Below the pieces are notes generated by a model. It worked only from the letters and a program-made list of their open reading frames with translations, did no database searches and had not been told where the DNA came from. This document shows positions 36,063 to 62,920 of a DNA stretch of 64,000 nucleotides, piece after piece; the stretch's first letter is position 1, and each line of letters opens with the position of its first letter. The position numbers and the translations under genes are program-made. The stretch lies in NCBI RefSeq assembly GCF_024223415.1, contig NZ_CP100500.1. One strand, written 5' to 3'. The stretch comes from Escherichia coli. GTDB taxonomy: Bacteria; Pseudomonadota; Gammaproteobacteria; Enterobacterales; Enterobacteriaceae.

Positions 36063-37366
36063 TATTTCTGCTTTAACGCCGCATATACCTGATCAACCAC
36101 CCAACCATACGTTGCAATCGGCAGCTGACCGCTTTCGAACATATTGGGATTCTTTTGCGGATCGGCAACCGGCGAATGTGGCTTGTTGCTTAACATCACA
36201 ATCGCCATATGATTCACCGGATCGATAACGGTTACCGTCCCGGTCCAGCCAGTGTGACCGTAGGTTTGCGGGCTTGCCAGCGTGCCAAACGTCGGCGTCA
36301 TGGTGGCATTACCATTCACGCGCCAGCCGAGGCCAAAAGTGGCGTCTTCCTTAGAGCTGGTGGTGAACATCTTCACCGTTTCCGCACTGAACAGCTGCAC
36401 ATCGCCATAGCCCCCGCCGTTCAGCATCGTTTGCATTAACACCGCAATATCGCCGGTATTGGAAAACAAACCTGCGTGCCCGGAAACGCCGCCCATCGAA
36501 TAAAAGGCTTTTTCATCGTGCACCTGACCCCAGAGAGTGGAGGTGCGGATATTCGGGAAGTGGATCACTCCATCGCGGGTATTGCCGTTCAATTCCGTGG
36601 CGGCAATTTGCTGCGGTTTAAAGCCTTTCAGCAGCGGGTTAAATACCGTATGTGTCAGGCCGAGCGGGCGATAAATCGACTCTTCAACATAGCGGTCAAG
36701 CGGCTGACCGGTGACCGACTCGACGATAAATCCAAGCAGCATATAATCGACATCACTGTAAATATGCTTGCTGCCGGGCTGATACTCTAGCGGCGTGCGC
36801 TTGATCATCTCCAGCGTCTGGCCTTTATCCTGGGAATATAACGCGCCCGCGACCGCTTTATTCGGATATTGTGGGTCCGCCGGGAAACCGCCGCTGTGAT
36901 GCAGCAGGTCAGAAATCCGCAGCGTGTTTTTGCCTTTGATGGTGTCATTTGGACTATCGGCAAATCCCGGAATATATTTCGCAATCCGATCGTCAGGATG
37001 CAGCTTGCCTTCGCTCATTAGCTTTTGCAGAGCAAAGTTAGTGGCGTACATCTTGGTATTGGAAGCCAGGTCATACAGCGTCCCGGTGGTGGCTTTGACA
37101 GGCTGTTCCATCAATACGCTGCCATCGTACTTTTTCGTCGCTCCCCAGGCTTTGCGATACACAATCTGATTATCTTTTATAATCAGCAGGTTTACGCCGG
37201 GATAACCGGCGTCCACTTGCTGGCTAATCCAGCGATCCATCTGGTTAAGCCGTTCGACGTTGAACCCTGCTTTCTCTGGCGAACTTTCTGTCAGAACAGG
37301 GTATTTTGCGGCGCTGACGCTACAACTAACAGCCAGCAGAGAAAGATAGAGCATTGTCCGTTTCAT
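36062..37366 (-). CDS. yfeW: penicillin-binding protein 4B / beta-lactamase-family protein YfeW (about 434 aa)
   Basis: ORF 36062-37399; start set at MKRTMLYLSLLAVS; SxxK-type serine hydrolase. Confidence 0.8.
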   Translation of the reverse strand: MKRTMLYLSLLAVSCSVSAAKYPVLTESSPEKAGFNVERLNQMDRWISQQVDAGYPGVNLLIIKDNQIVYRKAWGATKKYDGSVLMEQPVKATTGTLYDLASNTKMYATNFALQKLMSEGKLHPDDRIAKYIPGFADSPNDTIKGKNTLRISDLLHHSGGFPADPQYPNKAVAGALYSQDKGQTLEMIKRTPLEYQPGSKHIYSDVDYMLLGFIVESVTGQPLDRYVEESIYRPLGLTHTVFNPLLKGFKPQQIAATELNGNTRDGVIHFPNIRTSTLWGQVHDEKAFYSMGGVSGHAGLFSNTGDIAVLMQTMLNGGGYGDVQLFSAETVKMFTTSSKEDATFGLGWRVNGNATMTPTFGTLASPQTYGHTGWTGTVTVIDPVNHMAIVMLSNKPHSPVADPQKNPNMFESGQLPIATYGWVVDQVYAALKQK

Positions 37367-57517: not shown

Positions 57518-58444
57518 ATGAATTATTCTTTAAAACAATTAAAGGTTTTCGTCACAGTAGCGCAGGAGAAAAGTTTTAGTCGTGCAGGAGAGCGTATCGG
57601 CCTGAGCCAGTCGGCAGTAAGTCACAGTGTGAAGGAGCTGGAAAATCATACTGGTGTTCGCCTGCTGGACAGAACCACGCGTGAAGTGGTGCTTACAGAT
57701 GCAGGGCAGCAGTTGGCTTTGCGTCTTGAGCGACTGCTGGATGAACTTAACAGCACGTTGCGCGATACCGGGCGTATGGGGCAACAACTGAGCGGAAAAG
57801 TTCGGGTCGCTGCCAGCCAGACCATTTCCGCGCATCTTATTCCGCAATGCATTGCTGAAAGCCATCGCCGCTATCCAGATATTCAGTTTGTCCTGCACGA
57901 TCGTCCGCAGCAGTGGGTGATGGAAAGTATTCGCCAGGGAGATGTCGACTTTGGCATCGTCATCGATCCAGGCCCAGTGGGCGATCTGCAATGTGAAGCG
58001 ATTCTTTCCGAGCCTTTCTTTCTGCTTTGCCATCGGGATAGCGCTTTGGCCGCGGAAGATTATGTACCCTGGCAGGCATTACAGGGAGCGAAATTGGTGT
58101 TGCAGGATTACGCGTCAGGCAGCCGACCGCTGATTGACGCAGCGCTGGCGCGCAATGGTATTCAGGCGAATATTGTGCAGGAGATTGGACATCCGGCGAC
58201 GCTGTTCCCGATGGTAGCCGCAGGCATCGGCATCAGTATTCTTCCCGCACTGGCGCTACCATTGCCTGAAGGTAGCCCACTGGTGGTAAAGCGCATTACG
58301 CCGGTTGTTGAACGCCAGTTGATGCTGGTGCGCAGGAAGAACCGTTCACTTTCCACCGCCGCTGAAGCGTTATGGGACGTGGTACGAGACCAGGGCAATG
58401 CGCTAATGGCTGGTCGGGAAGGGGATCCGTTGTATCAGATATAG
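57518..58444 (+). CDS. yfeR: LysR-family transcriptional regulator YfeR (308 aa)
   Basis: N-terminal LysR HTH; divergent from yfeH. Confidence 0.85.
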
Positions 58445-58776
58445 ATATCGATATGAGTCGTATTTTCAACAGGATTTAGAAGGGATACATTCAGAGACAA
58501 ACGCTGCTCTTTCTCCTGCGCCTTTTCTGCCTGCTGTCTCTGCAACTGCGCCAGTTGTGTTTCCAGTAGGGTGATTTGCTGTTGAATCAATTCGGCCTGT
58601 TTTTGCTTGTCTTCAGCACTGCCGCCAGTGTCTACAATCTCTTTAATTTGTTGAGTGAGTTTGATGATTTGCTGACTTATCCGCGCGATTTGTGAAGCAA
58701 CATCGCTACCTTGTGATGCCCTGTTACTACTCTGTGTTTGTATGGAAGGAATTGAAGTTGAAGAGATAGTGGCCAT
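58435..58776 (-). CDS. FlxA-like small coiled-coil protein (113 aa)
   Basis: ATG 58776 with SD gagga 8 nt upstream; S/T/Q-rich N-terminus then Q-rich coiled coil, resembling the FlxA family; AT-rich relative to neighbours; 10-bp convergent overlap with yfeR. Confidence 0.6.
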
Positions 58777-58804
58777 TGTTCAGTCCTCGTCACTGTACGA
58801 GGTA

Positions 58805-58831
58805 ATATCGGTAGAAGAACAAGGAACTTGA
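58805..58831 (-). promoter_or_regulatory. candidate sigma28 (FliA) promoter for the FlxA-like ORF
   Basis: Coding-strand TCAAGTTC-N11-ACCGATAT versus consensus TAAAGTTT-N11-GCCGATAA (6/8 and 6/8, correct spacer), about 28 nt upstream of the ATG. Confidence 0.4.
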
Positions 58832-58852
58832 GAAGAAAAATCAATCTTACAA

Positions 58853-58913
58853 ATCGCAGATAGCAAAAAAGCGCCTTTAGGGCGCTTTTTTACATTGGTG
58901 GGTCGTGCAGGAT
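58853..58913. repeat. 61-bp direct repeat, copy 1 (lysV 3-prime end plus terminator)
   Basis: Identical to 59009-59069: atcgcagatagcaaaaaagcgcctttagggcgcttttttacattggtgggtcgtgcaggat. Confidence 0.85.
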
Positions 58914-59008
58914 GACTCGCTTCGCTCGCCCTTCGGGCCGTCGCCGCGAGCGGCTCCGTTGTTTCGCTGCGCTCAACTCGAACCTGCTGCAGGTTCGAAT
59001 CTTTGAGT

Positions 59009-59069
59009 ATCGCAGATAGCAAAAAAGCGCCTTTAGGGCGCTTTTTTACATTGGTGGGTCGTGCAGGAT
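59009..59069. repeat. 61-bp direct repeat, copy 2 (authentic lysV 3-prime end plus its terminator)
   Basis: Includes the last 18 nt of tRNA-Lys and the rho-independent terminator hairpin gcgcctttagggcgc with its T/A runs. Confidence 0.85.
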
Positions 59070-59127
59070 TCGAACCTGCGACCAATTGATTAAAAGTCAA
59101 CTGCTCTACCAACTGAGCTAACGACCC
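59052..59127 (-). tRNA. lysV: tRNA-Lys (UUU)
   Basis: Minus strand reads GGGTCGTTAGCTCAGTTGGTAGAGCAGTTGACTTTTAATCAATTGGTCGCAGGTTCGAATCCTGCACGACCCACCA. Confidence 0.95.
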
Positions 59128-59131
59128 GAAG

Positions 59132-59207
59132 TGGTGGGTGATGACGGGATCGAACCGCCGACCCCCTCCTTGTAAGGGAGGTGCTCTCCCAGCTGAGCTA
59201 ATCACCC
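59132..59207 (-). tRNA. valY: tRNA-Val (UAC)
   Basis: Minus strand reads GGGTGATTAGCTCAGCTGGGAGAGCACCTCCCTTACAAGGAGGGGGTCGGCGGTTCGATCCCGTCATCACCCACCA. Confidence 0.9.
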
Positions 59208-59253
59208 ACTTCGGTACTTCACATTTTTACAAGAAATTTAGCTGGTGAGAAAG

Positions 59254-59329
59254 TGGTGGGTGATGACGGGATCGAACCGCCGACCCCCTCCTTGTAAGGG
59301 AGGTGCTCTCCCAGCTGAGCTAATCACCC
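59254..59329 (-). tRNA. valX: tRNA-Val (UAC)
   Basis: Identical tRNA-Val(UAC) sequence, second copy. Confidence 0.9.
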
Positions 59330-59373
59330 ACTTCTCAATTTCTTGCTACACGGCGGAGACTACATATAGTAGT

Positions 59374-59449
59374 TGGTGGGTGATGACGGGATCGAACCGC
59401 CGACCCCCTCCTTGTAAGGGAGGTGCTCTCCCAGCTGAGCTAATCACCC
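59374..59449 (-). tRNA. valU: tRNA-Val (UAC)
   Basis: Identical tRNA-Val(UAC) sequence, promoter-proximal copy. Confidence 0.9.
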
Positions 59450-61123: not shown

Positions 61124-61651
61124 TTAGCGCATAAAAGATAAACGGCAGGAGAGATACCCCTGCCGTTTTTTATTTATCCGGTGCGCCGTAAAACCCCGTC
61201 CTTCAGGGCGGGGATATAAGGCGCGGTTTTCCACCTGACCAGGTGTTTGCTGTTGTTCAATGTATTGGCGGATGACGGATATTGGCGCACCTCCGCAGCT
61301 ACTGGCAAAATAGCCAGGACTCCACAAAACGCCTTTGTAGTAATACCTGACTGCAATATCTGGTCGATCTCGTCGCAGTAACCTACCCGATACGCCTTTG
61401 AGGCTGTTTACCAGACTGGATATCGCCAGTTTGGAAGGATAGTTAATTAACAAATGGACGTGATCTGGTTCGCCATCCATTTCAACCAGTTCAGCTTCAA
61501 AATCAGCACATACATTTGAAAAGTAAGTGCGTAGTTTTTCTGTCGCGTCATAGTCAAAAATCTGACGTCGGTATCTGGTGACAAAGACCAGATGAACATG
61601 CATCAGGAAAACACAATGCCTTCCCCGTCGGATATCGGTTTCTTTATTCAT
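61124..61651 (-). CDS. tnpA: IS200-like HuH (Y1) transposase TnpA
   Basis: HVHLVF...PDHVHLLINYP (HuH motif) and GYFASS catalytic-Tyr region; the ORF runs without a stop through the gltX terminator so the true 3-prime end is uncertain; start at MNKETD or nearby. Confidence 0.7.
   Translation of the reverse strand: MNKETDIRRGRHCVFLMHVHLVFVTRYRRQIFDYDATEKLRTYFSNVCADFEAELVEMDGEPDHVHLLINYPSKLAISSLVNSLKGVSGRLLRRDRPDIAVRYYYKGVLWSPGYFASSCGGAPISVIRQYIEQQQTPGQVENRALYPRPEGRGFTAHRINKKRQGYLSCRLSFMR
61140..61172. terminator. rho-independent terminator downstream of gltX
   Basis: aaa-cggcaggagagatacccctgccg-ttttttatt. Confidence 0.7.
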
Positions 61652-62920
61652 AGACCAAAGTATCATTTGGCCGGTGAAACGACTACAGGCATTTAAATTC
61701 CAGTTAAGACCAGGTGGTCAACAGGAGCGTGAAATGAGGCGCTTCGCAGGCGCATGTCGTTTCGTTTTCAATCGTGTTCTGGCGCTTCAGAATGAGAATC
61801 ATGAGGCCGGTAATAAATACATCCCTTACGGGAAAATGGCTTCCTGGCTGGTTGAGTGGAAAAACGCACTGAAACGCAATGGCTTAAAGATTCGCCCTCA
61901 CAGCCATTGCAACAGTCACTGAAAGACCTTGAGCGGGCTTACAAAAACTTCTTCCGGAAGCGGGCTGCTTTTCCCCGATTCAAAAAAGCGGGGACAGAAT
62001 GATGCATTCCGCTACCCGCAGGGCGTTAAGCTCGATCAGGAAAACAGCCGTATTTTTCTGCCGAAACTTGGCTGGATGCGCTACCGGAACAGCCGTCAGG
62101 TCACGGGAGTTGTGAAAAATGTCACTGTCAGCCAGTCCTGCGGTAAGTGGTACATCAGTATTCAGACAGAAAGTGAAGTATCAACTCCGGTTCACCCTTC
62201 AGCATCAATGATCGGGCTGGATGCTGGCGTGGCTAAACTCGCCACGCTGTCAGATGGCACAGTCTTTGAGCCTGTAAACAGTTTTCAGAAAAACCAGAAG
62301 ACGCTGGCGAGACTTCAGCGACAGTTAAGCCGCAAGGTCAAATTCAGCAATAACTGGCAGAAGCAGAAACGCAAAATACAGCGACTGCATTCCTGTACCG
62401 CAAATATCCGCAGAGACTACCTTCACAAAGTTACAACGACCGTCAGCAAAAAACACGCAATGATAGTCATTGAGGATTTGAAGGTCAGCAACATGTCAAA
62501 GTCAGCAGCGGGTACGGTCAGCCAGCCGGGGCGCAATGTCCGGGCAAAATCAGGTTTAAACCGTTCGATACTGGATCAGGGCTGGTATGAAATGCGCCGC
62601 CAGCTTGAGTACAAGCAGCTCTGGCGTGGCGGTCAGGTGCTTGCTGTTCCGCCAGCGTACACAAGCCAGCGTTGCGCGTGCTGTGGTCATACAGCGAAAG
62701 AAAATCGCCTGTCACAAAGTAAATTCAGATGCCAGGTATGTGGATATACAGCGAACGCCGATGTAAACGGCGCTCGTAACATTTTAGCGGCGGGGCACGC
62801 CGTTCTTGCCTGTGGAGGGATGGTGCAGTCAGGCCGCTCGTTGAAGCAGGAACCCACCGAAATGATTCAGGCGACAGCCTGAACGTAGCAGGGATCCTCG
62901 TCATTCAGGGCGTGGAGGAT
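61175..62920. mobile_element. IS200/IS605-family element (divergent tnpA / tnpB); boundaries approximate
   Basis: HuH Y1 transposase gene divergent from a TnpB gene, inserted between the gltX terminator and the yfeD stop; ends not determinable by eye. Confidence 0.7.
61674..62882 (+). pseudogene. tnpB: IS605-family TnpB (RuvC-like, Zn-finger) with two compensating frameshifts
   Basis: N-terminus in frame 0 to TGA at 61920-61922; conserved block [39 protein letters not shown] is encoded at 61871-61987 in another frame; frame 0 resumes at the A6 run 61982-61987 and continues to 62882 with a CxxC...CxxC zinc finger. Confidence 0.7.

Follow-up and report, generated by a model that had tools for sequence, protein, structure and literature searches.

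A FlxA-like gene with a predicted sigma28 promoter in a conserved chromosomal slot of Escherichia coli and other Enterobacterales

A stretch of 64,000 nucleotides from Escherichia coli (contig NZ_CP100500.1; hereafter the window) carries, between yfeR and the tRNA gene lysV, a small gene for a FlxA-like protein. The gene is probably the chromosomal positional orthologue of a FlxA-family lineage, has its own sigma28 (FliA) promoter and class 3 flagellar expression, and is replaced by another cassette in K-12-type strains. Transcription would start at this promoter and leave a leader of only about 20 nt. Given its own sigma28 promoter, the gene would be expressed in class 3, after completion of the hook-basal body frees FliA from FlgM. 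K-12-type E. coli lack the gene because a cassette of 404 bp is precisely replaced by the 4.4-kb yfeN-xapABR cassette. The founding member of the family (PF14282) is K-12 FlxA (b1566), which is encoded in the Qin cryptic prophage.

The gene, its family and its candidate promoter

The gene and its predicted expression signals are located on the minus strand of the window:

58435–58776, minus strand: coding sequence of the FlxA-like family protein, ATG start, 113 amino acids (open reading frame call, Pfam, RefSeq name)
58784–58788, minus strand: Shine-Dalgarno sequence GAGGA, 7 nt before the ATG (read from the sequence)
58824–58831, minus strand: sigma28 −35 element TCAAGTTC, 11 nt upstream of the −10 element (matrix, orthologue comparison)
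58805–58812, minus strand: sigma28 −10 element ACCGATAT (matrix, orthologue comparison)
58796–58798, minus strand: predicted transcription start, G58798 or A58796, 7–9 nt past the −10 element (general promoter geometry)

A preliminary description of this DNA had reported an open reading frame of 113 amino acids between yfeR and lysV, with a ribosome binding site and a low guanine + cytosine (GC) content, and had recognised the product as FlxA-like. The reading frame, the binding site and the composition were all found where it had placed them. The GC content is about 42–46% in comparison to 52–58% in the neighbours, largely because many residues of the protein are Q, K, I, S or T. The family assignment also stood. 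A hidden Markov model search against Pfam gave a significant match to FlxA (i-Evalue 1.2e-13, 51.5 bits), in which residues 15–92 align with positions 4–82 of the 101 model positions. The RefSeq product name agrees: the identical protein in strain EC1515 (WP_000201409.1) is a "FlxA-like family protein". K-12 FlxA is 43% identical over 74 residues (BLASTP, E 2e-12). Relatives numbered 73 at E ≤0.001 among 1.84 billion cluster representatives, and a word-indexed protein search gave only eight matches; neither of the E. coli proteins matched in an exact-sequence cluster look-up. All 49 aligned relatives matched PF14282, and no second family was consistent among them. A Pfam match to Flagellin_C occurred in one of the 49 relatives and was rejected as coiled-coil noise. 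Membership in the FlxA family is secure. The gene is under purifying selection, with a ratio of non-synonymous to synonymous substitution rates (dN/dS) of 0.10–0.20 between genera. At the position of the Shine-Dalgarno sequence, the aligned orthologues have a purine-rich, AGGAG-like sequence.

Orthologues were collected in a scan of representative genomes with an alignment of eight sequences, which listed at least 33 enterobacterial loci. The genera among these matches, at least about 15, include Pseudocitrobacter, Kluyvera, Pluralibacter, Cedecea, Enterobacter, Lelliottia, Leclercia, Superficieibacter, Buttiauxella, Pantoea, Phytobacter, Kosakonia, Siccibacter and others. Salmonella, Citrobacter and Klebsiella were not among the matches listed, and such an absence is uninformative. 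The 33 listed loci are without exception located in the gltX/tRNA/ypeB/ligA neighbourhood, and nearly all keep the adjacent yfeR and yfeH. The order is gltX-tRNAs-gene-yfeR-yfeH-ypeB-ligA. The same slot is used in a locus of Pseudocitrobacter faecalis, retrieved by an exact-protein look-up, and by a relative with 34% identity. The FlxA-like gene is an old positional orthologue in Enterobacterales. A comparison of the yfeR-lysV interval thus finds the gene at this site in related genera, and the description of the gene as an orphan does not hold.

The candidate promoter was compared with the sigma28 consensus TAAAGTTT-N11-GCCGATAA. As noticed in the preliminary description, the motif TCAAGTTC-N11-ACCGATAT matches the consensus at six of eight positions in each element; it lies at a workable distance from the gene. 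A matrix was built from the FliA sites mapped by chromatin immunoprecipitation sequencing (ChIP-seq; Fitzgerald et al. 2014; PMC4183435 Table 2). With this matrix, the window motif (58831–58805) scores 16.3–16.7 bits, approximately the median of the leave-one-out scores of the ChIP-mapped sites, and ranks second on both strands of the 64-kb window. The background, from 443,000 control positions in the same loci, is 2e-6 per position for at least 16 bits and 3e-5 for at least 12 bits. The departures from the consensus have precedents in validated FliA promoters: TCAAG in flgKL and modA, ACCGATA in ycgR and fliD and GATATT in motAB and modA (PMC4183435). No sigma70-like promoter was found in 58200–59150. 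The top matrix match in the window, GAAATATATTCCGGGATTTGCCGATAGT (18.5 bits; 36953–36980, minus strand), is located inside a coding region in the pbp4b/murP area and resembles many intragenic FliA sites reported for K-12.

A single site of such quality is only suggestive, so the promoters of the orthologues were examined. All 33 listed syntenic homologues carry the motif. The best upstream motif scores 11.7–20.6 bits, and the −10 element ends 26–34 nt before the ATG. This element reads GCCGATA(A/T/C) in nearly all orthologues as well as in the ST69-type allele of E. coli; in Pantoea it is TCCGATAA. Spacers and leaders have diverged freely. The 34%-identical syntenic relative has a TCAAGTCG-N11-GCCGATAA promoter. 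A 37%-identical, non-syntenic relative in an rpsU-tsaD-plsY-folB neighbourhood has TCAAGTTT-N11-GACGATAA, 37 nt upstream. K-12 flxA has a promoter of the same type and a short leader, with TAAAGATT-N11-GCCGATAG at 23 nt before the ATG. Throughout the orthologues, the further relatives and K-12 flxA, the motif is positioned 23–37 nt before the ATG. That the motif is kept in every orthologue examined while its surroundings drift argues for a real link to the flagellar programme. We conclude with good confidence, from the conservation of the motif, that a functional sigma28 promoter is likely to drive the FlxA-like gene.

Two points weigh against this conclusion. The −10 element of the window starts with A rather than G and the −35 element has two mismatches, and the promoter may therefore be weaker than those of the orthologues. 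In addition, K-12, the strain of the published FliA ChIP-seq and RNA sequencing, is without the gene at this locus (PMC4183435).

Predicted protein and possible export

The family has a common layout in the alignments. An M-T-T-I-type start is followed by about 20 polar, uncharged residues rich in S, T, G and Q. Two heptad-repeat helices, split by a G-S-x-(E/D) turn, are followed by a variable linker. The C-terminus G-V-N-x-P-x4-Q-I-D-I-Y-I is conserved across the relatives and contains the hydrophobic motif (Q)ID(I/V)Y(I/V). The family members share a size of about 100–125 amino acids, and the window protein has this layout according to the alignments and an AlphaFold2 model. K-12 FlxA, with 110 amino acids in comparison to 113, shares the polar N-terminus, the two heptad helices and a C-terminal IDIY(V/I). 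The AlphaFold2 model was made with the alignment of 49 sequences. It places helices at residues 23–49 and 54–96 with a predicted local distance difference test score (pLDDT) above 88, arranged as a hairpin; residues 1–21 and 99–113 have a pLDDT below 50. The product is thus predicted to be an antiparallel coiled-coil hairpin of two helices with disordered ends.

Databases beyond Pfam were little informative. NCBIfam gave only coiled-coil noise, far under the curated cut-offs. The single match in PHROGs, phrog_11044 (2.7e-8), is a family of unknown function. Only designed or generic coiled coils came up when PDB sequences were searched with a profile. Foldseek against PDB found nothing at E ≤0.001, and the best matches (E 0.2) were generic hairpins. 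The top Foldseek match, the type III stalk protein CdsO, was set aside, as such a match is expected of any helical hairpin.

A possible function can be proposed. As with FlgM and the hook-associated proteins, the flagellar type III apparatus may export the small product as a late-class substrate. Its disordered N-terminus would then serve as the signal for export; a partner would bind to a surface made up of the hairpin and the C-terminal motif. The timing, the small size and the conserved disordered N-terminus are expected of a late export substrate. Residues 1–21, of low pLDDT, polar and uncharged, are compatible with an export signal and not specific to one. The proposal draws on an analogy and is tentative, with the balance tilted against it.

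The analogue is FlgM, the anti-sigma28 factor. It has about 100 amino acids, a sigma28 promoter and a disordered N-terminal part, and is exported after the late-substrate switch. FlgM and FlxA are listed together in an E. coli exoproteome (PMC6391000). FlxA-like proteins differ from FlgM by their stable-looking coiled-coil hairpin, and no sequence similarity to FlgM was detected in the Pfam, NCBIfam and PDB searches; the likeness is an analogy only.

Published data on the K-12 paralogue are consistent with export. In the exoproteome of E. coli DH5alpha, FlxA rose with FlgK, FliD, FliC, FlgL, FlgM and FlgE (PMC6391000 Table 1). With the exception of FlxA, all of these co-rising proteins are exported flagellar proteins; the evidence concerns the prophage paralogue of K-12 (PMC6391000). 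At 42 °C, where the secretion of FlgM is inefficient, the protein and the mRNA of flxA were oppositely regulated (PMC6551532). Several points weigh against export. The same exoproteome table holds the cytoplasmic proteins CheY and isocitrate lyase, and lysis is possible (PMC6391000). The exoproteome evidence belongs to the prophage paralogue and not to the chromosomal gene. The 42 °C paper gives no direction for the change of the flxA protein (PMC6551532). Two further points concern the interpretation as a whole. Neither a solved structure nor a fold match gives a clue to the function, and according to the work of Ide and Kutsukake (1997), as it is cited in PMC4183435, K-12 flxA is not needed for motility.

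The product may instead stay in the cytoplasm as a class 3 component, a coiled-coil adaptor, chaperone or regulator with an intracellular partner. This is a serious possibility, although short of an even chance. FliJ and the export chaperones FlgN and FliT are small helical proteins of a similar kind. The helical hairpin of about 75 residues has the shape of CdsO, the best though non-significant Foldseek match, and the conserved C-terminal IDIYI looks like a docking peptide. The promoter evidence fits a cytoplasmic component equally well. The supernatant data speak for export: FlxA co-varies with exported flagellar proteins, and the only other protein of the motility regulon in that table is CheY (PMC6391000). 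A conserved disordered N-terminus is also without an obvious role in a cytoplasmic adaptor. Neither point is decisive. Extended to the whole family, the export proposal would make FlxA a conserved, so far unrecognised late-class flagellar export substrate, in which the chromosomal gene is ancestral and K-12 FlxA was captured by a prophage. This extension is possible, and we regard it with some doubt.

Conserved position and the cassettes of E. coli

The neighbour downstream of the gene and the variable cassette are:

57518–58444, plus strand: yfeR, a LysR-family regulator, conserved convergent neighbour
58446–58849, without strand: variable cassette of about 404 bp (genome comparison)

The cassette contains the FlxA-like open reading frame and its promoter only. 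Of the 5426 complete E. coli genomes, 1316 (24%) have the cassette, among them BL21, O157:H7, O145, B7A and ST69. The K-12-type and B2 genomes examined have a block of 4.4 kb in the same interval, yfeN-xapA-xapB-DUF1427-xapR; the preliminary description had correctly placed yfeN-xapABR here in K-12. The yfeN-xapA-xapB-xapR cassette spans the same interval, from the yfeR stop codon to the RtT/lysV terminator. It codes for xanthosine catabolism and an OmpK-type porin, is ten times longer and has no sequence in common with the FlxA-like cassette. The junctions are sharp, right after the yfeR stop codon and at about 58850, and the flanks are approximately 99% identical between both forms. The E. 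coli alleles of the FlxA-like gene differ by up to 3.5% (dS 0.056), which we take to be approximately the depth of the species.

The 3' ends of the FlxA-like gene and of yfeR overlap convergently by 10 bp (58435–58444). The same overlap of the stop regions was observed in the E. coli, Pseudocitrobacter and Pluralibacter-like loci checked.

The FlxA-like gene is the likelier older occupant, which the xap-yfeN cassette replaced in most E. coli. The preliminary description had considered the gene to be horizontally acquired. A recently acquired orphan, in a small island beside a tRNA gene, would have entered the flagellar regulon by chance. The GC content under that of the neighbours suggests such an arrival; as stated above, it is largely an effect of the amino acid composition. 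The gene adjoins lysV and a repeat with a partial tRNA 3' end, features of an island; no integrase or transposase and no form-specific flanking direct repeat was found beside the gene, and K-12-type genomes share the RtT repeat. The patchy distribution in 24% of the E. coli genomes would also fit a recent arrival. It is set against the same site in at least about 15 listed genera, Pantoea included, the allele divergence within E. coli, and a yfeR with approximately 99% identity between the two forms as far as the stop codon. The family is also nearly absent from phages: among 50,697 phage records, none matched the window protein and one matched K-12 FlxA. Cross-genus synteny, purifying selection, the lack of flanking mobility genes and the rarity in phages contradict horizontal acquisition, which we consider unlikely. 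The breadth of the chromosomal lineage and the rarity in phage records also make it more likely that the prophage flxA copy is the derived one.

One observation points to lateral movement. The E. coli allele is 93.6% identical (dS about 0.10) to the gene in a metagenome-assembled genome (MAG) of an uncultured Pseudocitrobacter (locus L006, 630–1100, compared with 58435–58900 of the window). The flanking ligA, ypeB and yfeH of that genome are only about 80% identical to E. coli. Between two Pseudocitrobacter genomes, the FlxA-like gene differs more than the flanks. As the gene is far closer than its flanks, the allele seems to have been exchanged in place between the genera, in one direction or the other. 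This one sign points to a swap of orthologues in place and not to the arrival of a foreign gene. YfeR of E. coli and Pseudocitrobacter share 95–96% protein identity, in comparison to 62–83% with other genera; LigA is 79–94% identical across all these genera. The unusually close segment may therefore extend into yfeR.

In this lineage of E. coli, the conserved motif could also be a relic before a silent or decaying gene. The alleles of the window and of BL21 have ACCGATAT where other alleles have GCCGATAT, and 76% of the E. coli genomes are without the gene. Frameshifted variants are present in the databases. Among E. coli-derived proteins, P0001 (159 amino acids) and P0007 (95 amino acids) are frameshifted. 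One frameshift removes the C-terminal IDIYI motif, and the frame then continues antisense to yfeR; with another, the protein ends after residue 59. These variants suggest that the gene is dispensable in some lineages, which counts against the main interpretation. On the other side, the open reading frame of 113 amino acids is intact in the window, BL21, ST69 and O157-type genomes. An A at the first −10 position also occurs in the promoters of fliD and of ycgR, the latter with a strong dependence on FliA, and the matrix score is still at the median of the FliA-bound sites. Decay is improbable on this evidence.

An unannotated gene fragment with 86% identity is located elsewhere on an E. coli chromosome (NZ_CP116409.1, near 1714046).

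Leader hairpin, surroundings and relation to K-12 FlxA

Upstream of the coding sequence, the following features were recognised:

58785–58802, minus strand: inverted repeat cctcgt (58802–58797) / acgagg (58790–58785) with a loop of 6 nt
58865–58891, minus strand: proximal terminator hairpin downstream of lysV/RtT, A6-GCGCC-CUAAA-GGCGC-U6 (folding, −16 kcal/mol, z −4.1)
58896–59021, minus strand: RtT-type repeat (Rfam RF00391, 51.6 bits), which includes a partial copy of the tRNA-Lys 3' end
59021–59047, minus strand: distal copy of the terminator hairpin, directly 3' of lysV (folding, −19.1 kcal/mol, z −5.9)
59052–59127, minus strand: lysV, tRNA-Lys(UUU), last gene of the valU-valX-valY-lysV operon, codirectional with the FlxA-like gene

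The preliminary description had proposed that the leader folds and partly occludes the Shine-Dalgarno sequence. The inverted repeat is real and overlaps it: the 3' arm covers its GAGG. A hairpin that controls translation in this way could act as a riboregulator or thermosensor. It could also silence only transcripts that read through from the tRNA operon, with translation left to those started by sigma28, in which the 5' arm is missing. The fold has −8.6 kcal/mol, an ordinary stability (z −1.39), and 14 of 200 shuffled sequences fold equally well. It is kept in the E. coli/Pseudocitrobacter clade only, where two Pseudocitrobacter loci retain it with a substitution in the loop, and is missing in more distant orthologues. 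In many orthologues, the −10 element is followed by a pyrimidine-rich stretch (CTCY), a potential pairing partner of the Shine-Dalgarno sequence. In a partner-swap test across the orthologues, the native pairing (mean −3.94 kcal/mol) was no better than the swapped pairing (−3.67 kcal/mol; p = 0.14), and no covariation was found. With a transcription start 7–9 nt after the −10 element, the 5' arm would be at about −4 to +2 and thus mostly untranscribed. If the hairpin forms, it is probably limited to read-through transcripts, and two strong terminators already block these. The hairpin is probably incidental, and a role in translation control has little probability.

Both lysV/RtT hairpins were established by folding; the terminator scan had missed them. 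With two strong terminators upstream, the FlxA-like gene is insulated from the tRNA operon. The tRNA genes valU-valX-valY-lysV are located at 59052–59449 on the same strand as the FlxA-like open reading frame. No terminator for the FlxA-like gene itself was detected, and sigma28-driven transcripts may consequently run antisense into yfeR.

The tRNA-Lys 3' end and the terminator are duplicated around the RtT repeat (58860–59050), which results in the two near-identical hairpins. The RtT copy number at this place varies among E. coli: BL21 and ST69 have none, other genomes one or two. In the Pseudocitrobacter MAG locus, the tRNA-Lys 3' end occurs four times. Farther away, downstream of gltX (about 61240–62880), the annotation of the matching genome EC1515 shows two further genes, a tnpA of IS200/IS605 that is truncated and a TnpB/InsQ gene with a frameshift. 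Neither is present in the K-12-type locus.

FlxA has been known since 1997 as FliA-dependent, which for K-12 is textbook knowledge. FliA binds K-12 flxA, and deletion of fliA lowers the flxA RNA from 280 to 2 (PMC4183435 Table 2). It is located in a prophage beside relBE and hokD, whereas the FlxA-like gene occupies a conserved chromosomal slot; the genes are paralogues of each other and not alleles. In a 2024 review of the K-12 'y-ome', flxA is still counted as uncharacterised (PMC11551758). Other genes that are not needed to build flagella, modA, ynjH, yjcZ and ves, likewise have a sigma28 promoter. The modA promoter, TCAACTTC-N11-GCCGATAT, has nearly the same sequence as the window motif. 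For these four genes, no comparable check of the promoter across genera was found.

The gene was already annotated by name and the FliA dependence of K-12 FlxA was known; the predicted promoter is in this respect a modest finding. The literature searched contained no paper with the term "FlxA-like". It also contained neither the widespread, positionally conserved chromosomal lineage nor the sigma28 promoter in every orthologue examined. The K-12 studies were blind to the chromosomal locus because K-12 has the xap cassette there.

FlxA has so far been treated as a prophage curiosity. Its main home is the conserved chromosomal slot of many motile enteric genera. The degree to which the promoter is conserved speaks for a genuine function in the flagellar programme. 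If the proposal of export is true, the product would be either a secreted factor or a regulator of the FlgM kind, whose export signals how far flagellar assembly has progressed.

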